IMG/VR virus record: IMGVR_UViG_3300041964_000099
Span: 57,303-121,302 of that record
Source: a virus
Strand: one strand, 5' to 3'
DNA length: 64,000 bases
In this document: positions 28,795-57,709 of the stretch, one piece after another
Numbering within the stretch: the first letter of the stretch is position 1
Layout: every line of letters begins with the position of its first letter
Position numbers and translations under genes: made by a program
The notes under the pieces: model-generated
What the model saw: only the letters and a program-made list of their open reading frames with translations
Database searches by the model: none
What the model was told of the DNA's origin: nothing

Positions 28795-31770
28795 TTAATT
28801 GCCCTCCGCAGGCGGATTGTCCTTGTTCTTCCGCTGCTGCTCCTGATGCTTTTTGTATGCCGCTCTAAATGCTGCACTGGCCTGCTGTGCTTGACGTGGA
28901 ACCAGCGATCGCCGCTTGTCTGCCTTCAGTACCTTGATGTACTTCTCCATCAGTTCATCCTGCTCAGCGATGCTCAGCGAAACAAAATGCTCTGCATGAT
29001 TGCGCGGGTCGCGATCGTCAGCAGGATTTGGCTTGGGATACTTGAGAGGGCGACCCTGAGCTGAGCGGCCTTTTGTGGTTTGAGAAACAACCTTGCGGTT
29101 CAGTTCGTTGGCCTGGAAGCTGCGCTGAAGCTGATCTACAACATCACCCGATTTGAGGTAAGACTCGATCGAATGCGAATCGACATCGCCGCCAGGGGTC
29201 GTTTTGCCCTCGCTGCGCTGGAATGGCAATCGCGAGAAAGGATCGCGATCGCCCATCACGTTCACCTCATTGATTTGCTTGGAATACAGCCCAAATCCCG
29301 GTGTACCCAAGGTTGCAAGCTGCACTCGCTTAGCAATTTGCGGGCCATTCGGCTTCATCTGCATCAAAATCTCAACCGCATCTCGCGCTACGATGCCACC
29401 CGTGTCATAGGCCACGATGTTGATCGGCAGATGGGATGCTTTTGAGCCGGTGGGTGTGCCTTGCCGATGAACGCGATCGCCATAGGCGTACAGTTGTGCG
29501 GCCAGCCGTGTCGAATCGTTATTCTTGCCGCCAGTCAGCGCACTCTTGAGCGTGCTGCCAAACCCTTTGCCGAGATGGTGGCCGAGATATTCTGGCGAAT
29601 TCACGTCTTTAGTTTCGGCAGGCCCAGCCCGATCAACCACCTCAAATGGAACTGCATAGTTGCTCGTGGTCATCCAGCCGCGATCGCCTTTTGCTTCACG
29701 ATTGCTGGCAGCTTGCAGCCCTTGAGCCAGTTCTGCACTAGAAACACCTGTACCGCCCACAGTGAACAGCAAATTAGAACGGGTCACGTTAGGCACTGTT
29801 GCGGCAATCGCATCAGATTGCCGTATTGCTTCACGAGCAGCGATCGGAAGGTTGCGGGTTCGCTCATTACTCAAAACTTTGTAGGTCGCTTTGGTCACTC
29901 CCATTGCCAATGCGCCGCCTACAAGCGATGCTGACAGCGGATCGTCTTGGGCTAGCTCGCGAATCTTGCTGGCCTGACCCCAAAGCTGGCTGGCACTTTT
30001 CAGCCCTGCTGTTTTCAGCGCCATTCCGATCGCCCGATTGCGAGTTGTCCGCTGCTTGGCCTGACGCTCTGAGCCGCTGAGACTGGAGGTGTAATAGCCG
30101 AAAGCCGTTCGCAGCCGCTCGCGCACGCCACCATCTTTCAAATAATCATCAACTTCATGCCCCGGCACAGTCGAAACCCAGCTTGCAAGGCGTTTTGGCA
30201 GTGCAGAGAAAGGATCTTGTGAAGAAGTCAGCGTTTGGTTGCGCATCGTGCGCCACAGCCGATCGTTTGCAAAGCCAAAGTTTGCTGACCCCATTCGCAC
30301 CAGGTTGATGCGGTCGAGCATGTCTTTGCCCTTCACCCCTTTGCCGTCTTGCGACTTCATCCGCGACAAAATCTCGATCGCTTCGTCAGTAACATTGCCT
30401 CCCGCGCCGTGAGCCAGCAAGTTCAAGTTGGCCTCTTTGTAGCGACGGCCATGAGCGTAGAGCGATGCCGCCAAATCAACCGCAGCATCGTTGCGCCCAC
30501 GCTGCAAATTCTGCAAGTAGCGACCCATTCCCTGCCTTGCGACATGGCCCAGGTAAGCCGGATTGTATGAGCCATTTGCCAAGCGAGGACTGGCCGCCGT
30601 TGGCTCGATATCAAACTCCTTCGACTGCACCGGAATGACGTGCTGAGTCTTGGCAAACCAGCGCTCTTGCGGGCTACCGTCCTGTGGCGTCATCAAATCA
30701 CGAATCCGCTCACTTCGCGATCCGGTGCTGGCAAAACCGCCTACGGTAAATAGCAAATCTGGCTTGTTCGTGCGCTCGATCGGGTGTGACTCAGCCCGCT
30801 GCATCGCCATCTGCGCCGACTCGTTTAGCCCTTCCTTATATTTGGTTCGCATCTCCTGATAGCTGCGGGTGGAAATGCCTGCCAGCAGTGCAACCGTTAA
30901 AATGCTTGCCGTCTGAGGGCTAGTTTTGGTGAGTCGGCCAATCTTCTCAATCTGGCCCCAAATCGAACCAGGGTTGAGACTGCTGCCGCTGGCTTTGCCG
31001 CCTTTAAGTACCTGTGTTGCCGTGGATAAAGCCTTTTGAGCCGATCGCCGCTGTTCCCTCTGCTTCTCCAGCGTTTTGCGCAGCCGCTCCTGACTTTCAG
31101 GATCTCTGTCCAGCGTGCGCAACGTTTCTCGCAACGATTCAGCCTTGAAGTGATTGGCTAGATAAACGCCGCGATCGCGAGCTTCTTGCTGAAGCTGCCG
31201 AATGGTCTGCGTACTGTAGCGATCAGAGTTTCCTGACTGGCTGGCCGTATGCAGTTGAGCCGTCAGCTTTTCAATTTCAGCGTGTTCCGTCGCCGAGGAC
31301 ACTTTAGAGAGATTTAACTGGCAGTTATCAGTCGGCTCAATGCAGCCCATCCCGCATGGCAGACCGTTCTTGCACTGATTCGGCTTGCGGCGATCGCGGC
31401 CCCGATCGAGTCGTAGCCGCTCATGCAGCACCGAAGCCAAATACTCAGGACTGGCATCTAGCCGCACATTCAGCGAATCCAGTAGCGGTGCAAACTCATC
31501 TATGTTGTCGGCAATCCAGCTATCGCGCCGCGCCTGTTCGACAAATTTGTATTGCAGCTTGTCAGTTTCAAGGTTGGCCGTGAAATCCAGCAGCTTCGTG
31601 CCATCGCGAAATATGCCCTCAATCAGCGATGGCTTTGGTACATCCAAATCTAAGATTGCCACCTTCCTGCCGTAGACTCGCTCTAACATCGAATCAAGTA
31701 GCCGAGCAAGCTGACCCTTCAAAGCAGCTAGCTTAGAGGCCGCAGGAATTTTCAAGGCAGAGACAGACAT
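28795..31770 (-). CDS. Multidomain protein: small beta domain, RxD cluster, Cys motif, two alpha/beta-hydrolase-like domains with atypical nucleophile elbows
   Basis: Likely start ATG 31770 (MSVSALK); elbows AHGAG (30400-30414) and AYDTG (29398-29412), each followed by DPF and His motifs. Confidence 0.7.
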   Translation of the reverse strand: MSVSALKIPAASKLAALKGQLARLLDSMLERVYGRKVAILDLDVPKPSLIEGIFRDGTKLLDFTANLETDKLQYKFVEQARRDSWIADNIDEFAPLLDSLNVRLDASPEYLASVLHERLRLDRGRDRRKPNQCKNGLPCGMGCIEPTDNCQLNLSKVSSATEHAEIEKLTAQLHTASQSGNSDRYSTQTIRQLQQEARDRGVYLANHFKAESLRETLRTLDRDPESQERLRKTLEKQREQRRSAQKALSTATQVLKGGKASGSSLNPGSIWGQIEKIGRLTKTSPQTASILTVALLAGISTRSYQEMRTKYKEGLNESAQMAMQRAESHPIERTNKPDLLFTVGGFASTGSRSERIRDLMTPQDGSPQERWFAKTQHVIPVQSKEFDIEPTAASPRLANGSYNPAYLGHVARQGMGRYLQNLQRGRNDAAVDLAASLYAHGRRYKEANLNLLAHGAGGNVTDEAIEILSRMKSQDGKGVKGKDMLDRINLVRMGSANFGFANDRLWRTMRNQTLTSSQDPFSALPKRLASWVSTVPGHEVDDYLKDGGVRERLRTAFGYYTSSLSGSERQAKQRTTRNRAIGMALKTAGLKSASQLWGQASKIRELAQDDPLSASLVGGALAMGVTKATYKVLSNERTRNLPIAAREAIRQSDAIAATVPNVTRSNLLFTVGGTGVSSAELAQGLQAASNREAKGDRGWMTTSNYAVPFEVVDRAGPAETKDVNSPEYLGHHLGKGFGSTLKSALTGGKNNDSTRLAAQLYAYGDRVHRQGTPTGSKASHLPINIVAYDTGGIVARDAVEILMQMKPNGPQIAKRVQLATLGTPGFGLYSKQINEVNVMGDRDPFSRLPFQRSEGKTTPGGDVDSHSIESYLKSGDVVDQLQRSFQANELNRKVVSQTTKGRSAQGRPLKYPKPNPADDRDPRNHAEHFVSLSIAEQDELMEKYIKVLKADKRRSLVPRQAQQASAAFRAAYKKHQEQQRKNKDNPPAEGN

Positions 31771-31892
31771 AAAGATGAAGGGATCAAGTGCTGCGTTTAG
31801 CGTTCCCAATCCCGCTATGGCTCTCGCTGCGGTAAGTGTCAAGGCAGGCTGGGCACTCTGAAAACAACGTTTACCACTCTCTCCCTCCCCCA

Positions 31893-32519
31893 ATGGCTGC
31901 TCCCACCTCTGTTACGCTCACGATTGCGGGTCGCTCTTACGCTGGCTTAGTCAGTGATATGGATGCTCTATTCATGACCGGCTTGTTGCTGCCAAACCTA
32001 TTTGAAATTCAGGAGCAAGAAGCTGGCCTGCAAGCAGCTTTTCAAAGCTTCAAATCCGAACATGCTGCACTGCTTGAATCTGCCACCACTGACGATGAGC
32101 GCGATTCCCTGGTTAAAGACCTGTTTGAAACTTGGGGTGAGCGGCTGCTAATTCGCCTCACTTCTAACCTGGCAATTCGGGCAAGCTTTGCTCAGCGGAC
32201 TGAAGAAATCTTTCCAGACATCGATCCGACCCTAGTTGCTTACAAGCACTGGGTTGATCGCGACGGCAATCATCACGATCGCTCGCGAATTCGGCTATCG
32301 CTTGAAGACGCGATGGAAATTGTCAAAACAGTAATTGAAGCTGAAACTTCACAACTCAAAGCTTCCACGACTCCGGCCCGTGCTACCGATCGCCCTAAGC
32401 CTGAAGGTTTTGGTAAACCAGTCACTAAAAAGTCTGGTCAATCCGCTCAGATTGCTGCACTTGAGCGCCAAATCGCCGACTTGAGAGCAGCCGATTCCGA
32501 AACACTTGCTACTGTCTAA
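31893..32519 (+). CDS. Hypothetical protein
   Basis: ATG 31893 within track ORF 31836..32519; divergent from 28795..31770. Confidence 0.6.
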   Translation: MAAPTSVTLTIAGRSYAGLVSDMDALFMTGLLLPNLFEIQEQEAGLQAAFQSFKSEHAALLESATTDDERDSLVKDLFETWGERLLIRLTSNLAIRASFAQRTEEIFPDIDPTLVAYKHWVDRDGNHHDRSRIRLSLEDAMEIVKTVIEAETSQLKASTTPARATDRPKPEGFGKPVTKKSGQSAQIAALERQIADLRAADSETLATV

Positions 32520-32548
32520 TTCCACCTCTACCTGAACGTCCTGCCACC

Positions 32549-33545: not shown

Positions 33546-33560
33546 CAAGTAGCTTTCAAC

Positions 33561-33595
33561 AAAAAGCCGATCGCTTTAAGGGCGATCGGCTTTTT
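33561..33595. terminator. Bidirectional intrinsic terminator between convergent genes
   Basis: AAAAAGCCGATCGC / GCGATCGGCTTTTT perfect 14-bp arms, 7-nt loop. Confidence 0.85.
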
Positions 33596-33649
33596 AATTG
33601 GGTGTGTGCGACCTATTGGCAGCGATGTTTTATTCTGCCTCAGTTGGCC

Positions 33650-34845: not shown

Positions 34846-34855
34846 TTTACGTCGA

Positions 34856-37210: not shown

Positions 37211-37216
37211 GGTTTC

Positions 37217-38206: not shown

Positions 38207-38208
38207 GA

Positions 38209-38788: not shown

Positions 38789-39700
38789 CTAGATGCCTGC
38801 AACAACGTGAATCGACATCGGGCGGCGAAGCACAACACCTGCGTACTTCAGTACAGCGGGGCGCTCATATCCCAACCCCTTACGCTGCATTTGCAGCCAG
38901 GTCAGAGGCTGCATGATCTTCGCCTTAACTTTTTGCTTGTCGCGGCGGTAGACCATCATGATGTCCAAACCGTCTTGACCCGCACCAGCCAGCTCGTTTA
39001 ACGGCTCAATATCTTTGATGTGGGGGCTATTTTCCAGAAACTGCTTCAGGATCGATGAACCCATTTGATCAGACCAGGGGGTGCTCACCAAATAGTTGTA
39101 CTGACGCAAAGGCAGTAACAGCGTGTTGGGCTTTTCAACCTGTTGAGTTGCTTCGACGATCGCAGTAACAGCGTCAGTCAGAACTGCAAGACACTGACGT
39201 GGCGTGCTGCTGGCGTTGAGCTTGAAGGGCGAATACGAGTGCATCGCATCTGGGTGATTCACAAACCCGGCCATGCCAAGAGCTTTGTCACCAAAGGCGA
39301 TCAAATCATTGAGTTTCTGGCGGCTGGATTCAACCACACCCGCAATATCCTCTGACTCTAAATTGAAGTCTTGGCGGGAGCTAGCTTCAATGTCATCATC
39401 CGAGAAATAATAGGCCGCTGCCCATTTGTAGACTTTCTGAGTGAATTCCTCGCTCAGCAAGTTGATGATCGGGATGTCAGTGAAGTAAGAGCGAACCAGC
39501 TTGAAGAAACCCACTCGCGAAAGGCGGCGATAGGTTGTAGAAGCGGCCCAAGGCGTGTTTTGGATGTCCAAAGGCACAATGCGACCATCGGCAAACGGCA
39601 GCTCAGCCGTTTCTTCGCGATCGATGTCCGCTTCAATTACTTCAAGCCGACGCTGGAAAGCGCCAACTGTGGCGTCATCTAAACGATACGTGGAAGTCAT
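38789..39700 (-). CDS. Major capsid protein (DUF2184 / encapsulin-like HK97 fold)
   Basis: IAFGDKALGMAGFVNHP, KPNTLLLP, GGV-like AGVVLRRPMSI, following the DUF2213 and cement genes. Confidence 0.85.
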   Translation of the reverse strand: MTSTYRLDDATVGAFQRRLEVIEADIDREETAELPFADGRIVPLDIQNTPWAASTTYRRLSRVGFFKLVRSYFTDIPIINLLSEEFTQKVYKWAAAYYFSDDDIEASSRQDFNLESEDIAGVVESSRQKLNDLIAFGDKALGMAGFVNHPDAMHSYSPFKLNASSTPRQCLAVLTDAVTAIVEATQQVEKPNTLLLPLRQYNYLVSTPWSDQMGSSILKQFLENSPHIKDIEPLNELAGAGQDGLDIMMVYRRDKQKVKAKIMQPLTWLQMQRKGLGYERPAVLKYAGVVLRRPMSIHVVAGI

Positions 39701-39761: not shown

Positions 39762-40571
39762 TTAAGTGCGATTCACTGAAACCAAAACAACAGGTTTGCC
39801 GTTGATGTCAGTCATGATCTCGCTAGCAAAGCTGGCAGTTGGAAAGGCAATTGTGCCAGTGTTGTTGGCCGTAACTCTGCCACCATCAGCGCCAAAAGTG
39901 ACAAAAACAGTGCTGTCTTCATTGATGCCGCTGGTTTCAACGCAAGGAACCCAAACGCCAGTTGCTGAGTTGACGCGATCGATTACATCCACAGCTTCAT
40001 TCGCTGCAAAAGTAAACTTAGCGTTGTTGCCAATAGCGTCTTTCTCGCCAAAGTGGGTGAGATGAGCAATTCCAATCGGGCGATCGGTTACAAGGCCAGG
40101 AATGCGGCAAGTGCCATCAGGGTCGCCGTTGCGACGCGCCACAACGCGACCTGGTTCGATCGGTAGAGAAGTTGAAGCAACAATCAAGTTGGTTGCGGTA
40201 ATGCCACCTGAAACGGTGACGCCAAGTGGAAGGCTAATCTTTCTGGCTGTCAGGGTTACAACATTCGTTGCGGTGTTGAGGCTGGGCACGGCAACATCAT
40301 AAACATCCGAGCTGCGCAGCAAGTTAAGCACGAAATTTGCTGTCTGAGCCTGAGTCAATGCTCCGGCTGTTGTGCCAGTAGCAACTTTGCCACCGGCTGT
40401 TACGGTGATGGTCACACCTGAAGCGACGCCACCACCGGGAGAGGCGATTGTCCAAGTGTCATAGGTGGAAGTTGCCGAGTTGCGATAAGGCTTCGATCGC
40501 GGCATACCCATGCCTTGAAGCGTTCCGGCAACTGCGGCTGCGTAATTGCGTCTGTAAATGGTTTGGGACAT
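39762..40571 (-). CDS. Capsid cement / decoration protein
   Basis: Between protease/scaffold and MCP; IEPGRVVARR...IGIAH...GVWVPC pattern with an inserted N-terminal beta domain. Confidence 0.65.
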   Translation of the reverse strand: MSQTIYRRNYAAAVAGTLQGMGMPRSKPYRNSATSTYDTWTIASPGGGVASGVTITVTAGGKVATGTTAGALTQAQTANFVLNLLRSSDVYDVAVPSLNTATNVVTLTARKISLPLGVTVSGGITATNLIVASTSLPIEPGRVVARRNGDPDGTCRIPGLVTDRPIGIAHLTHFGEKDAIGNNAKFTFAANEAVDVIDRVNSATGVWVPCVETSGINEDSTVFVTFGADGGRVTANNTGTIAFPTASFASEIMTDINGKPVVLVSVNRT

Positions 40572-40631: not shown

Positions 40632-41969
40632 CTAGCGTTTCGACATCGTGAGCGGGGCTGAAGCGTTGTCCATCCGCTTTTTGTCTCCAGCGCCAATCTC
40701 GCCTTTAGCAGGCTTGTTGTTCTTGCCGCCTGTGCGAACAGAGGCATTTAGTGCCTCGTCAAGTGCATCAGCGTGGAATGCCGAAACGGAATCGCTGCGA
40801 ACACCATTGAGCGTCAGGCTACGGTAGAGACCGGAAACTTCTTCAGGAGCGATCGTGACACCGGGATTTAGAGCCGAAACGAGCGCAGTCTTAATGCTTT
40901 GGCTATCCATGCTGGCATCTAGCTTGATCTCAGGAACGTTGATGCCCTGAGCCGTCAGCTTTTCCATGATTTGACGAGCGCCGTCCATTGCATCAACTCG
41001 CTCTTTCACCTGAACTTGCACCTTGGCTTCGATTTCTTCATCGCTAAGGCCAGGGGCTGCGGTTTCGCTGTCGGCGCGGGTTTCGGTCAATGCTTCTTGC
41101 AGTTGTGCCGTCAAATCATCAAGGTCAAGTTCAAGGCCATCAGCACGGCCCAGCTCGCGATCGCGCTCAGCCGTCAGCGACACGATTTTCTGTTCCAGAT
41201 CAGCAATAGCGCTCGCTGCATCTGCACGAGTTTCGGAGATTTTAGCTAAGTCTGCTTCCACGCTATCAAGGCGCTTAATTTTTGCGCTGATGATACCTGC
41301 AAGGCTTTCAGAGACATCACTGTAGGTCACATTGTCAATTTGAATGGTTGCCATATGAGAGGGTTCAGGGAGGTTGGGTTTAGTGTTCACAGAATCGTGA
41401 TCGAAATCGTGATCACATGAACATTCCTGACATGCGACATCTGCGCAGTCGAAATGAATCGATGCGATCTCTCCGGCACGAGCTTTTCTGACTACGGCTA
41501 AATGGTTGTAAGCCACGTTCTTTTGTCGGTGTGTGTACGGCTCACCGTTGAACACACCAGACTCTTCGATCACGTCGCATCGATACCCACAGGAAAGCTG
41601 CCGCTTATCGCCACGTTCAATTGCGTCGATCGCATCTTTGCGGTGAACATTAAAGACGACCTCAATAAGGCCATCTCCCACAACATGCACTCGGTTATTG
41701 ACCGAACCTGTGGCATATTGGGCAGCATTCTCAGCAGTAACTAGCCCTGGTGGATGTTCCAGGGTTGTAGGTTTGCCGCCAAGCGTTTCCAGGCTTTCTT
41801 CAGAAAGAATGTCATCAGGATGGCGCAGCTCAAAACGGGTTGTTCCATCCACATTGGGATAAGGAAAAACGCCGGTGCGCGTTGCCACACCTCTGACAGT
41901 GAGAAAGCCTTCTTTGGAACGAATAACTTTTGTTACCGTTCCTTTATCAAATCGAATAGCCGTAGTCAT
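40632..41969 (-). CDS. DUF2213-family prohead protease / scaffold
   Basis: EGFL...ATRTGVFPY, GKPTTLEHP, QLSCGY, YNHLAVVRKARAG; coiled-coil C-terminal half. Confidence 0.85.
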   Translation of the reverse strand: MTTAIRFDKGTVTKVIRSKEGFLTVRGVATRTGVFPYPNVDGTTRFELRHPDDILSEESLETLGGKPTTLEHPPGLVTAENAAQYATGSVNNRVHVVGDGLIEVVFNVHRKDAIDAIERGDKRQLSCGYRCDVIEESGVFNGEPYTHRQKNVAYNHLAVVRKARAGEIASIHFDCADVACQECSCDHDFDHDSVNTKPNLPEPSHMATIQIDNVTYSDVSESLAGIISAKIKRLDSVEADLAKISETRADAASAIADLEQKIVSLTAERDRELGRADGLELDLDDLTAQLQEALTETRADSETAAPGLSDEEIEAKVQVQVKERVDAMDGARQIMEKLTAQGINVPEIKLDASMDSQSIKTALVSALNPGVTIAPEEVSGLYRSLTLNGVRSDSVSAFHADALDEALNASVRTGGKNNKPAKGEIGAGDKKRMDNASAPLTMSKR

Positions 41970-42031: not shown

Positions 42032-42241
42032 TTACTCGGTTACTTCTTCACCAACCTCAACGGTATAGCCACCTTTTTCAAGTTCAATAATTCGATAAGC
42101 AATTTGCTTATCTTCGGCTGTACAAATACCCGTAATTTCATCATCTGTGATTGATTCAACTGCCACAGCCGTTACTGTTTTCTTCAGCTTGTTGCTGAGT
42201 AAGTTAGCAATCATTTGCCGAGTATCATTCATTTCGCTCAT
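42032..42241 (-). CDS. Small stand-alone beta domain (paralog of N-termini of 46647..47172 and 28795..31770)
   Basis: [16 protein letters not shown] vs [16 protein letters not shown] vs IEGIFRDGTKLLDFTA. Confidence 0.55.
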
Positions 42242-45200
42242 GGCGATCGCCTCGAAACAACTTGACGAGCGACCCGATGTGCAATCGGGTCAACAACTTT
42301 AGCCGTCGTCATGCCGCTGCTGGCTCCAGCCGCTACGCCTGCAACATTGACTTCTGCACCAAACATCTTTGGAGAAACGGCCCCAGGCACATGCCCAGAT
42401 GCCGCAGTTCCTGCGGCTGTGCCGACTGCTCCTGCTGCAACCTCAACCAGGCCATCCCGAATAAGCTGCTCGCGATCGGCGGCTGACATTGATTTTATGC
42501 CGCTGAACAAACCATCTGCACCAGATTTAACCACGTCATCATAGGAAACACGCCACGATCGCATCGCGACTCGTGCTGCACCTGATGCAATCGGGGCCAT
42601 CCAGCCAGGAGCTGCACCGGCTGCCATCACAACCGCTTCTTCAATCTGCGGTTTGATGTCGATTTCTCGACCTTTGCCTGTCTGAATGACTGACCGCATT
42701 TCCTGCTGAGCCGATCGTGCCAATTTTCGCGCCTGCTCTACCGGCTTTTTCCAAACCGTCTGACGCTCACCTTGGCGATTGGTAATTTCTTTCCTCACCA
42801 ACCCTCTACGCTGCATTCCAGTCGCAACATCCTGCCGAGACTGGTTTAATGCCAGCCAATAGGCATCACTGCGATCGGTTTTGAGATTTTTGAGCTGTTC
42901 TTCTAACTCAGTAATCCGCTGCATTGCCTTAGTCGGGCGCGAAGGAGGCCGCTTGCGAGTTTTGGCACGGTCGGCCTCTAACTTTTGCAGCGCTTCCAGC
43001 TCACTCGTTAAAGCGGTGCGATCGGGCTGCTCTGCTGCGGGCGGATTTGATGCAGTTTCAGGCTTGGCCGCTGTGGAAGTTGGCTCAGTTGGCGTAGTTG
43101 GTTCAGTTGGCGTAGTCGGCTCAGTTGGACGTGGTGCAGCAGCAGTAGCTACGGCTGCCGCTGGTTTTGGCTCAGATTTGGCCTGAGATTGGCGAGTTGA
43201 TTGAAGTTTGGCCCCTAATGCCACACCTCCCAGACCAATGGCCCCTCCGCCTACCACTGCTGCGGCTGCGGCTGAGCGAGCTATGCGCTTTGAAGAAGCT
43301 TCTGTTTCCTGCGTCGATTCCTCAAATGCTTCCTTTGCCTTGTGCGCTGCCAACGCTCCGCCAGCGGCGATCGCGCCACCCACTAAAGCCGCGCTAGCAA
43401 CTTTTCCAGCAATCCTTGCAGCCACAGCGCGAGCCTTCGGCTTGCGCCTCCAGTACCCACCATTTTCTACCCCGTCATCCTCAACCCATGTGTAACCAGG
43501 GCGAGTAGGACGGCTAGTTGCAGCATTTGCGGCATCTCTGCGAATCTCATGCAGTACAACATTCATCCAGTCCGCTGCATCTTTGCGATCGCGACCTTCC
43601 ATCGCTCGCTCATATGCTTCAGTTGCGCGGCGAAACTTTTCTGCGGCTGCCGGATCGTTGGGATTGACATCTGGGTGGTAAGCCTTGGCTGCCTTCCGAT
43701 AGGCTCTCTTAATTTCTGCGGTTGAAGCAGTTTTTTCAACCTGAAGCACATCATTCCAAGACTCAGTTGAGGCAGGAGTTGAAGGGCGCGATCGTGACTG
43801 CGATTGCTGCTGCTGCCGTGCCTGACTCTGCCGATCCTCTTCTGCCCATTGGCGAGCAGTATCTTTCCAGCGTCGAGACTGTTCTGCCCAGCGCTTTGCA
43901 TCTTCTTCCTGATACTGCTGTTGCCGCTGCCGCCAAGCTTCATTGCGGGCCTGATTCGCTGCCCTTTCAGCAGTATTTTCTGCGGCTCGCTCCTGTCTCT
44001 GGCGATTATGCTCGTTTTCCCACTCACGCCATTGTGCGGCTTGCTGTTGAGACTGAGCCTGTTTTCGAGCGTGTTCACGATGCGTAGCAACCCCTTGAGC
44101 TGCCGCTGCTGCACCAAAAGCAATGCCTGTTGCAGCCGTAACGCCTTTGGCTGCCTTCAGCCCAGCATTTTGCTCTGGCCTTTCCTGTATCAGGTCTGGC
44201 AAAACAGTAAAATGCCCTGCTTCCAGATTCAAATTACGAGCTGCTACCGCGCCTCCGGCCATGCTACCTGCAACAATTCCGCCCACTAAGGCCGCGCTAG
44301 CAAGGTTCTCAGCAACACTTGCAGCCACAGCACTAGCTTTTGGTTTGCGCCTCCAGTACCCGCCATTTTCTACCCCGTCATCTTCAACCCATGTGTAACC
44401 AGGGCGAGTAGGACGGCTAGAAGTTGCCGCTGCATCTTTGCGATCGCCAGGGGTGCAAGCCTTGCCATAAATTTGCGGTTTTACAAACTCCTGAACTTCT
44501 GGATCGCCAAAATAGTTGTTCTGGCGAGTAGGACGGCTAGAAGTTGCCGCTGCATCTTTGCGATCGCCAGGGGTGCGAGCCTTGCCGTAAATTTGCGATT
44601 TTACAAACTCCTGAACTTCTGGATCGCGAAAATAGTTGTTCTGGGTATGGTCTTTGACACCTTCAAAACTTTGCAAATTGCGAGTTGGCAGCTTGGCCGT
44701 AGCAGTATCGATAGGTGAGCCAATAGTGTGCGAATTGCCGAAAGGTTCGGTCAGTCCTCCCCACGGCGTTCCAAATGAAAAAGAATGCAGTCGGTCTTTA
44801 AACTCAGGACGTGCCCGACGCAAAATCTCTTCAGCTTCATGCACGATCATGCCGCCCATGCTGTGCCCCATCATCACAAGCTTGCGATCGGGATTCTTGT
44901 CACCATAGGCAATTACATTTGCAGCCATTTGAACGGCTGCGGGATTGCGACCTTTGCTGATGCTGCGATAGTGAACCCCGACAACATCGAGCGCTCGATC
45001 AACGCTGTTACCACGCTTGCGCCCAGCCGGAATATTTACCGCTGCATTGCTCACCGCAACAGTTTTGAAGTCTTTGCCTTTGTCTTCGCTAAAAGCCAAT
45101 CTTGCAGAAGTAGCAATGCGCTCACCACTGATGACTTGGGGGGCTTCTTCATAAGCCATTCCCCCGGCCCCAAATACAATCGTTTGCTGACGGGCCTTGA

Positions 45201-46650
45201 CGCTGCCAACTTCGATCGCCTTGGCCTGGTCGATCGCCATCTCTGCTGACTTGTCAAATCCGGCGCGATAGCGGGCACGGGTCGCCAGATAAGTTGCGGC
45301 AGGCACTCCAATGGCTGTGGCAGTCGCGATCGCTGCTTTTTTGGCGACAGGCGAGATTTTGGCATTCTCTTTGGCCTTGGACTCAGGAATAGAAGGCGCG
45401 GGCAGGGAGAGTTGCTTTCCTTTCACCTGTGTCGCCACACCCACGCCAGCCGCTAAAACTCCCCCAGCGATCGCTGTTGTAGCAAGCTTGCTGACAAGTC
45501 CTTTTGAGGCAACTGAGCCTAATCCGATCTGGCATTCTTTGTCTTCAGCGATGTAGCCGTTTCCGCATTTTTTGTCCTGCCGCACCGAGTCTTGCTTTGA
45601 CGATGACTGCTTAGCCTCACCCGATTTGCGATCAAAAAACTCTTTCAGCCTATCCACGGTTTCCGTATTCGTCCGTCGTTCCACCTCACCTGTTGGCATG
45701 AACGATCGGATGCGCGGGTTATAAGTCATTTTTGCTTTTTCGGAGACAAAGTAGCTCATGTGGTTGTCCACCGAGTTCACTTGCACCTGATTTTTAGTCC
45801 TAAATCCTGGCAGAGTCAAAACTGGATCGCTGTCAGAGATAAAATGCGCCGACTTCTCAGGCATGGGGACTAATCCGTAATGAGGGCTTCCCATGTTGGC
45901 AACCCGCACGTCTTTGACTCCCATGCGCTTCAAAAGCTCTGCGGCTTCGTTTGTCACCATGCCTCCCGCAGAGTAGCCAACCAAGTTGATTGGTTTTCCG
46001 GTTTTCTTGTGGTAGGCATAGGCTCTGGCTGCCATCCGAATCGCAACTTGGTTTTTGCCTTTACCAACCACCGTGTCCAGCATGGTTTTTAGGCGAGCCT
46101 GAGTAACATCATCAGTGGGTGGCCCGTCCTTGGATTCAACGTCAAACTCTGGATTTTCAACGCCAACCACATGATGATTTTTGAACGATCGAGCCATCTG
46201 ACCCGCAAAGTAATCCCCGGCTGTACCTCCAGTGCCGCCAAATCCGTTAGAGACAAAAGTGACCTGCTCGGCCTCCTTTTTTAGGGAAATCCCCTTGTAT
46301 CCGTTCGACTCACCCAACGGCGAAACTCGCAGCCCCCCTTTCACCTCGTCGGGAACTTCAAACTGCTCGGACTCTTTCAGAGCTTCTTCGACACTGCGAT
46401 CTAAATTCTTTCGATAGCGAACAACCGTAGCCCTATAAGCTGCGGCTGGCACTCCAAGCACTGCGGCTCCTGCGGCCAGCGTCTTCGGATCTACCCCCGC
46501 AATTGATTTTGTAACCGCAGTTTTAGCCGCCTCGATATTGCTTTCTGGCTTAGAAGGCTTGGCTGCGTTCGCGCCAACCGCAGCGATACCCGCTCCGATC
46601 GCCGCAGCTCCCGCAACGCCCGCAACTCCCGTTAAGCCTGCCGCCGTCAT
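42238..46650 (-). CDS. Polyvalent protein: two Ser alpha/beta-hydrolases, J-domain, repeated linker modules
   Basis: GYSAG (45964-45978), GHSMG (44854-44868), J-domain with HPD (43669-43677), RxD motifs at domain borders. Confidence 0.8.
44403..44644. repeat. 120-bp in-frame tandem duplication (40 aa)
   Basis: [40 protein letters not shown] / [40 protein letters not shown]. Confidence 0.9.
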
Positions 46651-47172
46651 TCTCCACCGGCGCGAGCAGCCTTCGCCTGTTTAATCGCTCGCACTACCGT
46701 TTCAGCTTGGTGTGCAGCCAGTGGGGAAAGCTTCTCATGGCACATATCCCCGCGCTGAATGCAGCGCCCTTTGCAGGGCTTACCTTTGCCCGCAGTTGAA
46801 TGCCTTTAGAAGCCCGCGATCGAGCCGCAAGCTGTCATCGTTATTTCGCAGCCTGCCAGTATCAGCATAAAACCCCATCAGAAATGAGTCGCTGCGCGTG
46901 CCAGAAGCCGCCTCACTTTCGTTGTACTGGATGCCGCCATTCTGAATCGTGTAATCGTAAAGCTGATGCTCCTGGTGGAACTTGCCAACGATCGCATCTT
47001 TGTCATTGAGGTCAAACGTCAATACTTTGCTGATGCCGCTGGTAAAAACTGTCTCAATAATCTGCTTCAGCGTTGTTCCAATGCGGCTCATCATTCCCGC
47101 ATCAGGACGCTGCCCAGGCCCAGCAGGATTAGGATTATTGGGTTTGGCTGGTGGGGGTGCAGCGGCGATCAT
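46647..47172 (-). CDS. Beta domain + RxD + Cys-motif protein, interrupted by an extra base near 46789-46791
   Basis: Track ORF stops at 46780; the +1 frame reads [17 protein letters not shown]...GGE* to 46647, overlapping the next ATG. Confidence 0.55.
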
Positions 47173-47602: not shown

Positions 47603-48010
47603 TTAGCGCTTAGGTTTGTATCCGTAAGCCTCTCGCGCCTCCTGAATTACCTCTCTCTCCTGGGGTGAAAGTTTGTCCTCGCCGCCGACTTCTGCAATCC
47701 GCTCATCGATCGCCTGAAGCGTCTCTTGGCGGTACTTGCCTGCCCTGTGAGCCAGCACACCCAGCGCCGCAGCACCGGCGACATTAGAGGCTACAGTCAG
47801 GCCGCCAATTCCTGCCAACACATTTTTGGCAATGCGCCCTGCACGGCCTTTACTACGGCGGCAATATCCACCGTTTTCTGCCCGTCGATCGTTCACCCAA
47901 GTGAACCCCGCGCCGCACGATCCGCCTTGGTCAGCTCGCCGCACGCTGAGAAAGCCCTCTACATAAGCTGGGGATTGTCCAGCTAAAAAATTCCGTTCTG
48001 CCTTATCCAT
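47603..48010 (-). CDS. Small RxD/linker-module protein with a hydrophobic helix
   Basis: SPAYVEGFLSVRRAD, TWVNDRRAENGGYCRR, then a Gly/Ala-rich hydrophobic segment. Confidence 0.6.
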   Translation of the reverse strand: MDKAERNFLAGQSPAYVEGFLSVRRADQGGSCGAGFTWVNDRRAENGGYCRRSKGRAGRIAKNVLAGIGGLTVASNVAGAAALGVLAHRAGKYRQETLQAIDERIAEVGGEDKLSPQEREVIQEAREAYGYKPKR

Positions 48011-48025: not shown

Positions 48026-48340
48026 TTGTCCCTTTTAGCATTCCCATGCCCTATTGCACGGGCACAAAAACCCCAGTCTTCAACCCCTATGCTCTCGCCT
48101 CAAAATAATGAACAAACAGATCAGCAACCTGTCTGGATTGAAGGAAACTCTGCTGATGCAATGGAGAAGCTTCTCGAAATGCTGGGTATTCCGATCGAAG
48201 ATGCAGAATTTGACAATCAAAAAGAAAGAAATGAACGTCAATGGGTAATGATTACCGGAAAATCAGCCGCAATCATTCGCGAAGCAATGGTTGAAGTCTC
48301 TCAAAAAATGGCAGCGTCAGAGCAGCCCCCGACTGCCTAA
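48026..48340 (+). CDS. Hypothetical protein (start uncertain)
   Basis: Protein-like from PQNNEQTDQQPVW onward; convergent with MuF. Confidence 0.4.
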   Translation: MSLLAFPCPIARAQKPQSSTPMLSPQNNEQTDQQPVWIEGNSADAMEKLLEMLGIPIEDAEFDNQKERNERQWVMITGKSAAIIREAMVEVSQKMAASEQPPTA

Positions 48341-49057
48341 ATCTTGCTCAACTTGCGATCGCAAGCTAGGAGATAGCCGCTCAATTCCTTGGTTCAAAAC
48401 AGCTTGCTGCTCAGCCTTTGGCGTTGTTCCGGCTGCGCGTCGAAATCCTGGCCCTGCAATCGTTAAAGGATCAGGTGGTGTCCCAACTTGCAGCCCCATT
48501 TCTTTTAGATTCCGCTCTTTCAATGAGTGGGCGCGGCATTTGCAGCCGTAATCACACATTGGATAGGCAACCAGCCAAAACGGATCATCAACTCGAAACA
48601 CTTGGCGATGTAGAGCCAGATGATTCGGGCGCGGTGAGGGCGAGTCACCATGCGACCACTGAAGATAAGGCCGCAGCCGCTGCACATCGGGATCTCGCTG
48701 CTGTGAGAATCGGCCAGCGCTCAGGGCGCGACGAACAGGCGTCTCAAAAATGACGCGCATTCGCCAATCCGCAGGCCCAGCCGGAAGCGGGTCAGGATGC
48801 CAGCCACGGCGAGCTACGAGGCGATCGAACTGTTCAATGAATGTCTCAAATGAGTTGCCTTCAGACAGGGATTGATCAATTAAAAAGCGCATTGACTCCA
48901 GCAAATCGGCGCGAGTTAATCCCGCGATCGTATAGGCCAAGTCATGCTGCTCAGCCTCAAGCTGCTCCCAAGACTCGGTAGGAAGGTTTACTTTTGAGCG
49001 GAAATACTCGATCGCCTCACGGGGCGGGAGGTTGAGATATTCAGGAATGCGTGACAT
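48317..49057 (-). CDS. Phage Mu F-like minor head protein
   Basis: [13 protein letters not shown]...AYTIAGL..., RPYLQW...RPNHLALH...DDPFW...[12 protein letters not shown]. Confidence 0.9.
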
Positions 49058-49106
49058 AAAAGCTGGAAATGCCTATTATTTCGTTAGCATTCCCGATTGT
49101 GACCGT

Positions 49107-50458: not shown

Positions 50459-50527
50459 TGCCTAAATCCGTAAAATCACAATAGATAGTAGTACAGGATT
50501 GATTTACCAAGATAGAAATCAATTACT

Positions 50528-51535: not shown

Positions 51536-51543
51536 TACAACTC

Positions 51544-52359: not shown

Positions 52360-52372
52360 GGGACTTTGGGGT

Positions 52373-52397
52373 TGTGGTAGGGATTGAAAGTGAAAGG
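52373..52397 (-). promoter_or_regulatory. 25-bp leader element (copy 2, upstream of tail tube gene)
   Basis: Identical to 39713-39737; ends 13 nt before the ATG. Confidence 0.7.
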
Positions 52398-52417
52398 GTT
52401 AGGAAACTCGCTCAGCG

Positions 52418-52996: not shown

Positions 52997-53189
52997 AAAA
53001 AGCCTCTAAATAGGGCAAAGGGCAATGAGCAAACATCTATTGCTCAGCATTCCCGATCGCCGCTTAGGTCACACAAAAAACCGACTCCCTCCATGCACAG
53101 AAGAAGCCAGTATGCGAATTCACTCTAGTCCACCTCTGTTGTGCCCTTCTGCCTGGGCAAAATAACAGCAAGTTTTCGATGCCTTTCTT

Positions 53190-55277
53190 ATGACTGCTGC
53201 TGAGCCGATTTCAATGGAGCTTGCCTTAATTCACTCTGATGGGGTGATGGGTAATGCCGTTACAGGCATGAATGATCCTGCCTATGACAAGACCGTTCAT
53301 TCCTATGTCGATACGGCTACACGGCTTCATCAAAATGAGGTTGAAGACCTGTATGAAGGCAATTGGATCTGTGCCAACTGCATCGACGCTTATCCCCTAG
53401 ACGCAACACGAGAATGGGTTGAAATTAAGCTGGGCGGCAAAGCTCGTGACAAACAAGTAATTGATAGCTTCAACACATATCAGACACGGCTGCATATTGC
53501 CAAAACGATCGAGCTAGCAGATAAGTGGAGTCGGCTGTATGGCGGCGCGGCAATTATTGCTGTGATTGAAGATGGGCAACCCTTTGATAAGCCTGTCCGC
53601 CTCGATCGCATCCGCACGATTCGGCGGCTGGTGGTACTCGATCGCTACAAAGTCCGGCCAGTCATTCACGACACTGACCCGATCAATCCCGACTTCTATG
53701 AGCTGGTGCTGCCTCCTCACCTCACCGAGGCGTTCCAGCTCGCAACCAATCAGCCTCGCGTCGCCGCAGCCGGTCTGCGCATCCACAAATCGCGCGTCAC
53801 CCGATTTGATGGCGTCGAGCTGCCACCTGAGATTATGCGCAGGCGCGAAGGCTGGGGTGGCGGCATCCTCAACCGTATCTACGACACTTTCAACCGTTTT
53901 GAAATGACCAACTCATCCGTTGCCAACCTGGTTGAGGAGGTGAGCATCTTCAAATACGCGATGAAGGGTCTGAAGGAGCTATTGGCGAAGAATGATGAAA
54001 AGAGCGTTTCACAGTTGCGCCGTCGCCTCAGCAGCATGTTCTTGCAGAAGGGCAATAAGAAAGCGCTGGTGTTCGATGCCGATGGTGAAAGTGCAGAAAT
54101 AATGGCCCGCAGCTTTACAGGCTTACCAGAGGTGATGGATCGACTGCAAGCGCATATGGTCGGGGCCAGCGATGTGCCTGCAACCATTCTGTTTGGCCGT
54201 GGCCCGATCGGACTTGCCGCCCAAGGAACCGGCGATGCTGAAGATAAGGTTTGGGGTAAAAAGGTCAAGCGGTATCAGGAAAGCAATTATCGCCCCAAGC
54301 TGACGACGGGAATTGACGATACGGCTGGGCTATTTGATTTGATTTGGCTGGCTCAAGATGGCCCGACCAAAGGCAAAACGCCTGATGATTGGTCTTTCAC
54401 CTTTAAGTCACTTGTTCAGCCAACCCTAGAAGAAGATGTGGCGCTACGCGAGCGGCAGGCCAATGTCGATCGCACTTATAAGGATATGGAAGTGCTGACG
54501 AACGAAGAGATTCGGAACTCGCGCTATGGCGGTTCAGATTACACGATTGAAACAACCCTGGATGAGCTGGCCTGGAGGAAGAAACAGCAGGCAGCCGAAG
54601 AAGGGCTAGACCAGTACAGCGATTACGGCTGGGGTGATGAAGAAGGCACACCTGAAGATGCGGGCACAGCTCAGCTTGAAAGCAGTAACCAACCTGCTCT
54701 ACCTGCTGGGCAAACTGCTGCGCCGGTGGGAGCTACCCCAGCCCTTGCAGGCCGTCAGGATGCTGTACGGCAAGACGATGCCACCCCCATCAAATACGTG
54801 CTGAAGTGGCAGGGGCTACAGCTCGGTGTGACGCATGAACCTGGAGATTTGCGCCACGATCGCCCGATGGCGGCAATTTACTGTCACGTTCGGGGCAGCT
54901 ACGGCGCGGCTGAAGATGGCATGGCGATCGATGCCTATCTGGGGCCGAATCCTGAAAGTGTTGCAGCCTTCAAAGTGCGGCAACTCAAATCTGATGGAAC
55001 AGTTGATGAGACCAAATGGATATTTGGCTGTGATTCGATCGTGCAGGCCAGAGATTTGTATCTGCGGCACATGCCCCAAATGCTGTTTGGCGGCATTGAG
55101 GCAGCCAGCCTCACAGATTTAAGTGCCTATCGCAAAGATGCGGAGAGCTGCGGCTGTGAAGCGTGCCAAACCCTTCAACCCCGGCGCAAAAAAAAACGGC
55201 AAAATCCCCAAAAGCTAAACGAATTGGGAGATGGTCAGAGCATATTGAAGAGTCGATCGATCGAGCCGACAGTTTAG
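53190..55277 (+). CDS. DUF1073-family portal fused to a C-terminal inorganic-pyrophosphatase-like domain
   Basis: SDGVMGNAVTGM, WSRLYGGAAI, IHKSRV, DVPATILFG; C-terminal YCHVRGSYGAAEDGMAIDAYLGP...DETKWIFG. Confidence 0.85.
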   Translation: MTAAEPISMELALIHSDGVMGNAVTGMNDPAYDKTVHSYVDTATRLHQNEVEDLYEGNWICANCIDAYPLDATREWVEIKLGGKARDKQVIDSFNTYQTRLHIAKTIELADKWSRLYGGAAIIAVIEDGQPFDKPVRLDRIRTIRRLVVLDRYKVRPVIHDTDPINPDFYELVLPPHLTEAFQLATNQPRVAAAGLRIHKSRVTRFDGVELPPEIMRRREGWGGGILNRIYDTFNRFEMTNSSVANLVEEVSIFKYAMKGLKELLAKNDEKSVSQLRRRLSSMFLQKGNKKALVFDADGESAEIMARSFTGLPEVMDRLQAHMVGASDVPATILFGRGPIGLAAQGTGDAEDKVWGKKVKRYQESNYRPKLTTGIDDTAGLFDLIWLAQDGPTKGKTPDDWSFTFKSLVQPTLEEDVALRERQANVDRTYKDMEVLTNEEIRNSRYGGSDYTIETTLDELAWRKKQQAAEEGLDQYSDYGWGDEEGTPEDAGTAQLESSNQPALPAGQTAAPVGATPALAGRQDAVRQDDATPIKYVLKWQGLQLGVTHEPGDLRHDRPMAAIYCHVRGSYGAAEDGMAIDAYLGPNPESVAAFKVRQLKSDGTVDETKWIFGCDSIVQARDLYLRHMPQMLFGGIEAASLTDLSAYRKDAESCGCEACQTLQPRRKKKRQNPQKLNELGDGQSILKSRSIEPTV

Positions 55278-57709
55278 GACGGTGGGGCCAATATCGGAAA
55301 GATGCGGGTAAGGAATGCGGGCGATCGCAGGTTGATGACGCCTGGGCGCAGTATCGTGAGGATGCAGCAAAGCGATCGCCCAAGGATCGAGGACTTGTGA
55401 AGCAAGAAATCACCAATAAGCATGGTGAACAGCAAACGGTTTGGAAGAAACCAGTACCGCAGCAGAATCCACACCAACGGCGACAATCGATCGTCTCAGC
55501 AGCAGACTTTAATCGGATTCAACCCGCAAAAATTGAAGGATTAGGAGCGGCTGCAACGTTCAATGAAACGCAAGGTGTCAGTCTGGACGGCAAAAACTAC
55601 GTCCTGAAGACAACGAAACTCAGTTCATTTTCAACCGCAGCTCATGAAATGGTGGTTGCTGACTTAGGCCGATTAGTTGGCGTGCCAGTCAATCGCGTGC
55701 GGTTAGTGCCAACCACTGCGCTCAACCGTCCCGATCGCGCTGCAACTTTGCATGAGGTTGTACCAGGCATCAGCGCCAAACAAGCGCCGATCGCTCAGCA
55801 GGTTGACACCTTTGGACTGGGCCTAAAAGTAGACAAATACACTCCTAAATCATCGGCTTTACAGCGAATTAGTCGGGCCTTGCAACATCCTGACTTAGCT
55901 CGCATCAGCGCTCTAGATTTGTTCGTCGGTCAGACCGATCGCAACCTCGGCAACTTGATTTATGACCCCAAAACCGATCGCTACACCGCGATCGACAACG
56001 AACATGCTTATGATCCTGCCCCCCAACCCATGCCGCTCTATGAAGCGGGCCAGGATGCCCCAAACCAAGTACCCAGTCTCTCGCTGAAGGAAATCTTGGC
56101 AGGCGTGAGCAATCATCCGGTAGGGCTGCCGAGTGAGCGCATGGCGCAAGCCTTCACCGCTGCCGATGACGCTGAACTCGATCGGGCTTTTGCAGGTCAG
56201 GATTTAGAGCCGTTTGTCAGCACATTGGAGAAGCTGCACACCCATTCACCAAGAAGAATTGCTCAGCAGAGACATCGCTATCTGATGGTTGCCAAGGGAC
56301 AAGCTTTTCCCAGCGGAGAAAACACAACGATCGAGCGAACCTGGAATGCCTCGCATCAAGTGCTGAAGCGTCTTCAAGACTATCAGGCCAGACAGCGAGT
56401 AGGTGAGCCACTGCGCACGGATGCCAAGGTAGAGAAAAAGGAACCCGATTTAGCTGACCATATTGCCGATCGCCTGCTGTCAGAAGCGGCTGAGCCGGTG
56501 CGCGGCTGGCTTGACCACATTCGCGGCTGGATGCAGGCCCAAGCAGAAGAAGGGCAGCCCCTAGAAACGGTGCGCGATCGCATGGCTGAGCTGTATGAAC
56601 AGCTTGACCCCGGCCAGTTCTCTCAACTGCTGGGCAATGGCCTCATGCTGAGCCAGCTTGCAGGCCGAGATGAAGTGATGCAGGAAATTGAGGAAGATGA
56701 GCGTCAGGATAGCCTGAGAGCCGACGATCGCCGCATATGGGTTGATGACCCTAGCGTTGAAAACAACGGCTACTACCGTCGCATCAAAGATAGGAAGACA
56801 CCTGCGATCGTTAGCCCATTTGTCAGTCAGAAAGAGTTTAGCCAGTTTCGCCAGGTAAAGGACGTGCGGCATAAAAGCGGCGTCAATACTTCATTTTTTG
56901 TAGAGTCACCCAATGGCGATCGTAAAGTGTTCAAACAGGCATTGCGCAGTGAAGCAATCAGCGTTGCCAGTGAAGTGCTAGCGTCGGAAATTGGCTTACA
57001 GGCTGGAATTAAGGTAAATCGATCGCGCCTGATTCCGGCTGCGGCACGTTCTGAATTTAAGGCCGCAGGTAATGTTGCAACGCTGCATGATCTCGTTCCA
57101 GGTCGGGCTGTGATTGACCTAAAGCGATCGAAGTGGGCAGATACAGATATTCAAATGTCTAGCTGGGCTAGTTACAACTTTGATGCGCTCTTAAACGCAA
57201 CTCAGCATCAAGACTTGGCAAAACTGCTGGCTTTCGATACGTTTGTTGCTAACTCCGATCGCCACTCAGGGAACTTGTTCTACGATCCTCGCAAGGGTTT
57301 CCACGGCATCGACTTGGGCTACAGTTTTGGTGAGCCGGTCGCGATCAAAATGGCTGAAGTTTTGGAAAATACAAGCGATACAACGCTGGAGATGCTGGCT
57401 GAAGATGACCACGCCCGCACTAATCTGACGCACTATGTCACCACGCTTGAAACGTTGCGGCAGCAAAACAGTGCAGACTCATTGAGGTCTCGAAGACTTC
57501 GCTATACAGCGGCAGCGCTGGGCAATCCTCGGTTTGAAACCGAATTTCAGCAGCACGTTCAGATGCAGCAATTACAGCCTGACGAACCATTGAAATATGC
57601 CTCAATGAACGTAGAGCTAGTAAATCATGAGTTTGAAACGCTTCGTCAAAATCAAGCCGCGATTCCCCGCATCATTAATCGCCTCAAACCCTACACTCAA
57701 CAGCCATGA
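55163..57709 (+). CDS. Protein with two HipA/PI3-4-kinase-like domains flanking a Mu-portal-C-terminus-like helical segment; possibly fused to the portal by -1 slippage at A9 (55188-55196)
   Basis: HEMVVADLG...DLFVGQTDRNLGN...AIDNEHAY and SEVLASEIG...DTFVANSDRHSGN...GIDLGYSF. Confidence 0.8.
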   Translation: MPNPSTPAQKKTAKSPKAKRIGRWSEHIEESIDRADSLGRWGQYRKDAGKECGRSQVDDAWAQYREDAAKRSPKDRGLVKQEITNKHGEQQTVWKKPVPQQNPHQRRQSIVSAADFNRIQPAKIEGLGAAATFNETQGVSLDGKNYVLKTTKLSSFSTAAHEMVVADLGRLVGVPVNRVRLVPTTALNRPDRAATLHEVVPGISAKQAPIAQQVDTFGLGLKVDKYTPKSSALQRISRALQHPDLARISALDLFVGQTDRNLGNLIYDPKTDRYTAIDNEHAYDPAPQPMPLYEAGQDAPNQVPSLSLKEILAGVSNHPVGLPSERMAQAFTAADDAELDRAFAGQDLEPFVSTLEKLHTHSPRRIAQQRHRYLMVAKGQAFPSGENTTIERTWNASHQVLKRLQDYQARQRVGEPLRTDAKVEKKEPDLADHIADRLLSEAAEPVRGWLDHIRGWMQAQAEEGQPLETVRDRMAELYEQLDPGQFSQLLGNGLMLSQLAGRDEVMQEIEEDERQDSLRADDRRIWVDDPSVENNGYYRRIKDRKTPAIVSPFVSQKEFSQFRQVKDVRHKSGVNTSFFVESPNGDRKVFKQALRSEAISVASEVLASEIGLQAGIKVNRSRLIPAAARSEFKAAGNVATLHDLVPGRAVIDLKRSKWADTDIQMSSWASYNFDALLNATQHQDLAKLLAFDTFVANSDRHSGNLFYDPRKGFHGIDLGYSFGEPVAIKMAEVLENTSDTTLEMLAEDDHARTNLTHYVTTLETLRQQNSADSLRSRRLRYTAAALGNPRFETEFQQHVQMQQLQPDEPLKYASMNVELVNHEFETLRQNQAAIPRIINRLKPYTQQP

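Follow-up and report, generated by a model that had tools for sequence, protein, structure and literature searches.

The virus record IMGVR_UViG_3300041964_000099 of IMG/VR is 121,302 bp long and was judged 98% complete. We analyzed its right-hand part, a 64-kb stretch referred to below as the window, and concentrated on positions 28795–57709, which contain the head module and one tail-adjacent gene. The region is the head-assembly module of an uncultured cyanophage-like phage with a genome of ~121 kb and a long tail. It encodes a DUF2213 head-maturation protease, and its head proteins carry a short motif, Arg-x-Asp followed by Ala or Ser (RxD[AS]; an arrow, as in R-x-D↓A, marks a cut or proposed cut). 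The distribution of this motif and its relation to the protease are described here.

The protease gene (40632–41969, minus strand) encodes 445 residues, with a DUF2213 domain at residues 1–165 (PF09979, phrog_530) and a coiled-coil scaffold at about residues 205–445. The major capsid protein (38789–39700, minus strand; PF09950, phrog_264) has 303 residues. A MuF-like minor head protein (48317–49057, minus strand; PF04233, phrog_220) marks the head-assembly module. The portal protein (53190–55277, plus strand; Pfam portal at residues 50–427) is fused to InPase, a pyrophosphatase-like domain (Pfam, residues 536–647). Its open reading frame (ORF) is overlapped by an 848-residue ORF (55163–57709, plus strand) with two HipA/PI3K-like kinase units (Pfam HipA_2 and PI3_PI4_kinase). 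Two further large proteins are treated here, together with the portal fusion and the kinase ORF, as cargo proteins. One of them, g42238 (42238–46650, minus strand; 1470 residues), contains two lipase-like hydrolase domains (Pfam Cutinase/lipase), a J-domain (Pfam DnaJ, residues 967–1014) and a conserved C-terminal domain. The other, g28795 (28795–31893, minus strand; 1032 residues), adjoins the tape measure gene and has a cargo-type N-terminal module followed by two degenerate hydrolase repeats. Searches of Pfam and PHROG gave no peptidase family match in g42238, the portal, the kinase ORF or g28795.

The phage is distant from isolates. By its protease, the nearest isolate phages (Aphanizomenon phage CL131, Synechococcus S-CBS4, Listeria B054 and Erwinia phiEt88) are only ~30–33% identical. 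A blastn search against isolate phages and a single-protein scan of viral contigs both gave no match.

The RxD[AS] motif in head proteins

A sequence-only reading of the window had proposed that R-x-D marks protease sites in head proteins, and all the RxD motifs that it listed were present. RLD lies at residue 6 of the capsid protein and RFD at residue 6 of the protease. The portal contains RQDA 522, RQDD 527 and RKDA 648; the kinase ORF contains RADS 34, RKDA 45, REDA 65, RTDA 418, RQDS 514 and RADD 519. In g42238 we found RQDK 357, RKDA 697, 737 and 1022, RRDA 1037, RSDA 1260 and RQDV 1272, and in g28795 RRDS 122, RLDA 144 and RLDR 161. Two smaller proteins also carry the motif. The 130-residue g46780 (46780–47172, minus strand), which the earlier reading had labelled 46647, contains RPDA 22, RSDS 93 and RLDR 116, and the 135-residue g47603 (47603–48010, minus strand) contains RADQ 25. 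RxD[AS] occurs in the protease ORF at residues 110, 233, 248, 298, 324 and 391. Two TRAD and one VRSD, assigned earlier to a separate scaffold ORF, were located in the protease ORF, within its coiled-coil C-terminal half. The 269-residue ORF between the protease and capsid genes (39762–40571, minus strand) had zero RxD.

RxD[AS] occurred 20 times in the head proteins, against 3.4 expected, and none of 1000 shuffles reached this count. RxD followed by other residues occurred 18 times (15.4 expected, not significant). The earlier claim of R-x-D enrichment held for RxD[AS] in head proteins and failed for RxD as such. The tail proteins contained 2 RxD[AS], with 2.1 expected. Lys and Glu variants of the motif were rejected for this phage, as K.D[AS] and R.E[AS] were at expectation in the head proteins (R.E[AS], 2 vs 3.9). 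When every pattern of the forms a.bc, ab.c, abc and a.b was scored without bias, R.DA ranked first (16 vs 2.85, Poisson p 6e-8). Across the whole genome (149 ORFs), the head region had 24 RxD[AS] against 5.2 expected, whereas the rest had 15 against 17.4. Shuffles in local blocks of 15, 30 or 60 residues preserve the local (linker) composition; after removal of the internal duplicate of g42238, they gave ~4.2 expected for 22–23 observed, and 3.4 for the 17 observed in cargo proteins alone. The protease-scaffold ORF had 6 RxD[AS] against 0.41 expected. For g28795 the numbers were 3 and 0.85, a weak signal by itself.

The sequence-only reading had warned that RxD also arises by chance, with several cases in the tape measure. 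We counted 10 RxD in that protein, and in no case was the next residue Ala or Ser. Because of this 0 of 10, we rejected the idea that the motif is a general property of helical proteins. The working motif was set as R-x-D followed by Ala or Ser, and the N-terminal RFD of the protease, whose next residue is variable, may be structural.

The positions of the sites in the cargo proteins agreed with the earlier claim that they lie at module borders. Domain intervals were approximate and were set by matches from Pfam, PHROG and BLAST. They cover 52%, 84% and 39% of g42238, the portal and the kinase ORF, respectively, yet all 12 RxD[AS] of these proteins fell outside them (chance product, ~5e-5). 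For portal RxD followed by other residues, three of four were inside domains. RQD↓A 522 (54753–54764) and RKD↓A 648 (55131–55142) of the portal bracket the InPase domain. Three homologs (P0099–P0101) keep [RK]QD↓[AS] ~10 residues before the InPase core despite differing Pro/Glu-rich linkers. Y-R-A-D↓S before a CGCEAC peptide, seen in this phage, is also kept in a MuF protein that has two InPase domains. RxD is absent from an InPase protein found in an unrelated context. The five RxD[AS] of g42238 (697, 737, 1022, 1037 and 1260) were all outside domain intervals; a single internal duplication includes both 697 and 737.

A recurrent module of ~20 residues, G[FY]xWVxDxxVExGGY[WY]R[RK], was found at many of the sites. 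It always sits a few residues (5–15) after an RxD[AS] and is usually followed by a Gly/Ala-rich hydrophobic helix. Copies are present in g42238 (residues 751–805 and 1052–1105, after sites 737 and 1037), g47603 (30–90), the kinase ORF (522–545) and one related locus (L002, 3941–9868, five copies). In g47603 the tag reads WVxD..GGYCRR and, with its hydrophobic helix, comes right after RRAD↓Q. No Pfam or PHROG family was found for the tag module or for g47603. The tag may serve in loading or in membrane insertion. Pairing of sites around a short aromatic helix, which the sequence-only reading had described, was seen for part of the sites. A second shared module, 61% identical over 38 residues, occurs in g42238 (1270–1306) and the kinase ORF (63–100), which show no other relationship, in both directly after paired RxD sites.

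The small protein g46780 corresponds to the N-terminal domain of large cargo proteins in the related loci L004, L082 and L002. Its identity is 48% to residues 33–154 of L004_1562 and residues 19–106 of L082_480, and its RSD↓S is kept in four relatives. The protein is separate in this phage and fused at a site cluster in relatives.

In these relatives the counterparts of g46780 and g42238 form one uninterrupted gene (L004, 4984–9672; L082, 6782–8224). Between the two genes of the window, 46650–46806 (minus strand) contains 45 conserved codons (49–51% identity) in a different frame; there is no start codon before the conserved part, and the frame returns at an ATGA stop/start overlap. The break reflects either two indels (by mutation or assembly error) or recoding.

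The two kinase units of the 848-residue ORF are paralogous, and each is preceded by sites (34, 45, 65, 418 and 514). The only in-frame start is GTG 55163. From this start the kinase ORF shares 115 nt with the portal ORF, and no ribosome-binding site is evident for it. Shifting by −1 at an A9 run (55188–55196) would join the portal–InPase frame to the kinases, and from the sequence the kinase ORF may be fused to the portal through this run. Possibly both this frame break and that at 46650–46806 are homopolymer indel errors in the assembly.

Residues 50–199 of g28795 match residues 8–142 of L082_480, and its body matches the hydrolase domains of g42238. Its positional counterpart in CL131 is ORF048.

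Protease homologs of 42–56% identity exist, and the enrichment recurred in independent related loci. In L002, a 1975-residue protein just upstream of the protease had 12 RxD[AS] against 1.56 expected, and the protease-scaffold had 10 against 0.46. In L004, the large upstream protein had 5 against 0.89 and the protease 4 against 0.49. The proteases of L082 and L003 had 8 against 0.47 and 5 against 0.43, respectively. Counted alone, the cargo proteins of relatives had 24 against 5.0. The tail genes of these loci had essentially no RxD[AS].

We then counted the motif in ~70 distinct DUF2213 loci. Their protease-scaffold ORFs contained 232 RxD[AS] against 29.3 expected. By gene place, enrichment was 2.8x in the next two genes (decoration and capsid) and 1.6x in upstream head genes. 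At P3, the place of Arg in the motif, the scaffold parts of these loci had Arg 163 times (16.2 expected), Asn 50 times (12.4) and Lys 86 times (34); at P2, Phe, Tyr or Leu was favored. In a distant clade (L102–L135) of prophages that are mostly rhizobial, with others from alphaproteobacteria, D[AS] was kept at 1.8x with Leu, Tyr or Val at P3, and the capsid N-termini read x-x-D-A. D[AS] was enriched 1.5–1.8x in scaffolds, whereas E[AS] was unenriched (1.08–1.16x). These sequences suggest that in the distant clade the Asp rule still applies and P3 is hydrophobic, which recalls the [L/I]-x-E of T4. Asp-Ala/Ser is found family-wide while P3 shifts with the protease clade, a pattern expected of enzyme subsite preference.

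ORFs more than two genes downstream of the protease in the ~70 loci, which are mostly tail genes, contained 23 RxD[AS] against 43 expected (0.53x). This scarcity possibly reflects avoidance of accidental cleavage.

The protease-scaffold and the predicted capsid leader

The protease ORF matched PF09979 over residues 18–171 with 122 bits (cut-off 22) and phrog_530 with an E value of 2.4e-65. Its gene lies between the portal/MuF genes and those for the probable decoration protein and the capsid, a position characteristic of the family. An AlphaFold2 model built with nine homologs had a β-rich domain at residues 1–165, a disordered linker, a hairpin and long helices, with the helices of the scaffold tail at 221–300, 310–340 and beyond. 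In a Foldseek search, the sole significant structural match was T4 gp21 (5jbl; E 1e-4, probability 1.0, TM 0.52 on target). The likeness to gp21 was by fold only, with no Peptidase_S77 match in Pfam at E 0.01. Across 112 diverse members of the family, conservation of His72, Ser126 and His156 was 92% or higher. In order and spacing they resemble the assemblin triad, and they are likely the catalytic residues. The model points to a DUF2213 domain that is a serine protease of the herpesvirus-assemblin/T4-gp21 fold, fused to its own coiled-coil scaffold. In an alignment of nine homologs (A1), the scaffold sites RVDA 324 and RxD[S/A/G] 391 were kept.

The only relative of solved structure found by sequence was Pa193 gp24 (PDB 9b40), a DUF2213 scaffolding protein that matched residues 108–168 with E 1.8e-5. 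It has a protease-like domain and a helical scaffold, its residues 286–326 stay under the capsid vertices, and its authors left cleavage open (PMC11456595). The PB1 ortholog of gp24 differs from the window protein in having no [KR]xD[AS]. PB1 and Pa193 were considered as a second experimental anchor and rejected, as their DUF2213 protein lacks [KR]xD[AS] and cleavage in Pa193 was left open.

An experimental anchor was found in phage TLS, a T1-like phage. The N-terminus of its mature capsid protein, determined by Edman sequencing, is ASDMGIW (PMC11447400). TLS has a DUF2213 protein, its head maturation protease gp33. The capsid gene of TLS encodes ASDMGIW after ...LRGAKND, that is, at K-N-D↓A-S, which is the sole [KR]xD[AS] in the capsid protein. 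The TLS scaffold contains 9 [KR]xD[AS] against 0.8 expected, whereas the rest of the genome contains 6 against 12.8. In alignment A2, D32 of TLS, the residue before the Edman N-terminus, aligned with D8 of the window capsid; L7, D8 and G13 were invariant. The alignment predicts the removal of an 8-residue leader from the window capsid at R6-L7-D8↓D9 (39674–39685). Capsids of relatives have RLD[D/A/N] after non-conserved leaders of 5–18 residues, and CL131 has RMD↓A. Nearly all of the ~90 capsid N-termini from the fetched loci have x-[LMFV]-D-[AS] no further than ~30 residues from where the protein is annotated to start. The proposal of the sequence-only reading that the DUF2213 protease cuts after Asp gains support from the TLS site aligned with R-L-D↓D of the window, and from the way the motif tracks protease clades.

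In the RefSeq protein of TLS, ASDMGIW starts at residue 33, or at 28 if the second Met is the start (L153, 15072–16061). Other candidate anchors were not used. Capsid mass spectrometry of Shigella phage Sf11 starts at residue 40, but its gp41 is a marginal DUF2213 match and residues 39/40 read A↓K, which is uninformative. Vibrio phage XM1, whose capsid lacks 30 residues, was considered and set aside. The Rogue1 and AHP24 papers give no N-terminal capsid sequence.

The 269-residue protein encoded between the protease and capsid genes is β-rich and matched only phrog_33525, a family of unknown function; it had no relative of solved structure by sequence. The same gene position is held by a cement/decoration protein in Pam3, Pa193 and TLS. 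The Pam3 paper backs this position for a cement-protein gene and has no cleavage data. By gene position alone, the 269-residue protein is probably a cement or decoration protein rather than a scaffold. The head module contains three small ORFs, one of them Mu G-like.

Proposed processing and its alternatives

We consider it likely that R-x-D↓A/S is the cleavage motif of the phage's own DUF2213 head protease, which would trim the capsid, degrade its own scaffold and cut the polyvalent cargo proteins apart. Inside the assembled prohead, the protease would cut after Asp in Arg-x-Asp↓Ala/Ser. It would chop its own scaffold tail at five or six sites, so that the pieces can leave, and remove the short capsid leader at RLD↓D. 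It would also cut the multi-enzyme "polyvalent" head proteins at the joints between modules. Cuts in the portal would release its pyrophosphatase-like domain and, probably, the kinase units as well; cuts in the 1470-residue protein would release its lipase-like domains, the segment with the J-domain and its C-terminal domain. Several products would start with the conserved tag and then a hydrophobic helix.

The virion proteome of CL131 includes a 1393-residue portal fusion, encoded by a single ORF, and ORF048, a large protein beside the tape measure (PMC6293099). Its supplement lists virion proteins and gives no peptide-level termini. By analogy with CL131, the cargo of this phage would be packaged in the capsid and ejected into the host; these steps, like cleavage itself, are inferred.

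Several observations weigh against cleavage by the DUF2213 protease. The window capsid has Asp, not Ala or Ser, after the predicted cut, and in TLS, the sole experimental anchor, P3 is Lys instead of Arg. By analogy with phage Rogue1, the authors of the TLS study surmised a 45-residue removal, at odds with their own Edman sequence (PMC11447400). DUF2213 proteins of the PB1/Pa193 type lack the motif. In the protease, conserved HRKDA 110 and YRCD 130 are inside the fold and the N-terminal RFD has a variable next residue; because some conserved RxD sit within the protease fold or at its N-terminus, not every RxD can be a site. Several scaffold sites are within predicted helices, and the fold was modeled with only modest confidence (mean pLDDT 62.6). 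The domain intervals behind the border test are approximate, and one of the three RxD[AS] of g28795 (467) is inside such an interval.

The motif might instead be a docking or structural element, such as a helix cap or a scaffold/capsid-interior contact that loads proteins into the prohead, with the proteins staying intact. Sites often stand before the WVxD..GGYWRR tag or in pairs around a short aromatic helix, as a binding module would, and the scaffold sites in predicted helices would also suit such a role. In mature Pa193 capsids a portion of the DUF2213 scaffold remains attached, and that study did not establish cleavage (PMC11456595). However, the homologous position in the TLS capsid is the real N-terminus of the mature protein, and the leaders before the capsid RLD are unconserved and vary in length. 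The motif is kept while the flanking linkers diverge, and P3 shifts with the protease clade while Asp-Ala/Ser stays, as for enzyme subsite preference. Given these observations, docking is unlikely to explain the motif.

The sites might also be cut by another enzyme or at another time, such as by a host protease or after ejection into the cell. No sequence feature ties the cargo sites to the time of cutting, and polyvalent proteins have been argued to be possibly processed after delivery (PMC5512222). Nevertheless, prohead proteases classically act on their scaffold and on the capsid leader, and the same motif fills both here; the motif co-varies with the DUF2213 clade, and Pfam showed no peptidase domain embedded in the cargo proteins. 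We regard cutting by something other than DUF2213 in the prohead as very unlikely. Chance is a negligible explanation, and so is an indirect effect of amino-acid composition and internal duplication in proteins rich in linkers: sites 697 and 737 of g42238 do share one duplication and the 10 RxD of the tape measure are at chance-like counts, but none of 1000 global or local shuffles reached the observed count, dropping the duplicate changed nothing, K.D[AS] and R.E[AS] were unenriched, and the enrichment recurs in independent genomes.

Beyond cleavage by the DUF2213 protease, a more general loading-and-release code can be proposed tentatively, although we doubt that it holds in full. Any enzyme would be made head cargo by an R-x-D↓A/S site, the tag and a hydrophobic helix. 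Such units would be strung into giant polyproteins, including the portal–pyrophosphatase–kinase fusion made by the A9 shift and the g46780–g42238 fusion, and would be cut apart so that each enzyme has a membrane-active N-terminus for delivery into the cyanobacterial host.

Significance and comparison with known systems

Sequenced phages with a DUF2213 protease number well over a thousand; among them are T1-like coliphages, many cyanophages and phages of Klebsiella, Vibrio and Acinetobacter. We found no stated cleavage consensus for them in the searchable literature. If true, the rule [R/K/N]-x-Asp↓Ala/Ser with a clade-dependent P3 would allow the mature products of capsid, scaffold and portal genes to be predicted during annotation, and it would help to spot head-packaged effector proteins from sequence alone. 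Puzzling giant ORFs with lipase-like, J-domain, HipA-like kinase and pyrophosphatase-like domains would become a model of pre-made enzymes delivered with the DNA. The rule is testable for this large, little-studied protease family, and T1 or TLS is suited to such a test at once.

In T4, one protease, gp21, cuts at [L/I]-x-Glu. It trims the capsid protein, destroys the scaffold and processes packaged and injected proteins (internal proteins and Alt). The window protease resembles gp21 in structure, its best match, and, under the cleavage proposed here, in the acidic residue before the cut and in a specificity set two residues upstream. It differs in having no S77 sequence membership, in Asp for Glu and Arg for Leu/Ile, and in unenriched R.E[AS]. 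The protease here is also fused to the scaffold, and multi-domain cargo would be cut internally, not only at an N-terminal targeting peptide.

The head proteases phiKZ gp175 and SPN3US gp245 recognize [S/A/G]-x-Glu and process many head and large ejection proteins. Motif-directed cutting of many head proteins is thus shared with the system proposed here. The motif, the branch of the protease family, the genome size and the head architecture differ, and the cargo here includes portal fusions.

Iyer, Burroughs, Anand, de Souza and Aravind (2017) described polyvalent multi-effector proteins that are linked to portal/MuF genes and predicted to be packaged and delivered, including a portal–InPase fusion, and they proposed self-processing by embedded metallopeptidase domains (PMC5512222). 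The window has the same kind of proteins, with portal plus InPase, two hydrolase domains plus DnaJ, two HipA-like kinase units and the MuF gene at 48317–49057. A difference is that no embedded peptidase, a common though not strictly defining feature, was found here, and that the joints carry the motif of the head protease. The combination of lipase-like domains, a J-domain and HipA-like kinases is not described in that paper, which has zero mentions of lipase, DnaJ or HipA (PMC5512222).

T1-like coliphages, represented by TLS, share the DUF2213 family, the gene order (portal, MuF, protease-scaffold, decoration and capsid) and a scaffold rich in [KR]xD[AS]. They differ in preferring Lys at P3 and in having no giant multi-enzyme head proteins. 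The system proposed for the window varies a theme known from T4 and phiKZ, in which a motif directs head maturation and effectors are packaged; it is not a new kind of system.

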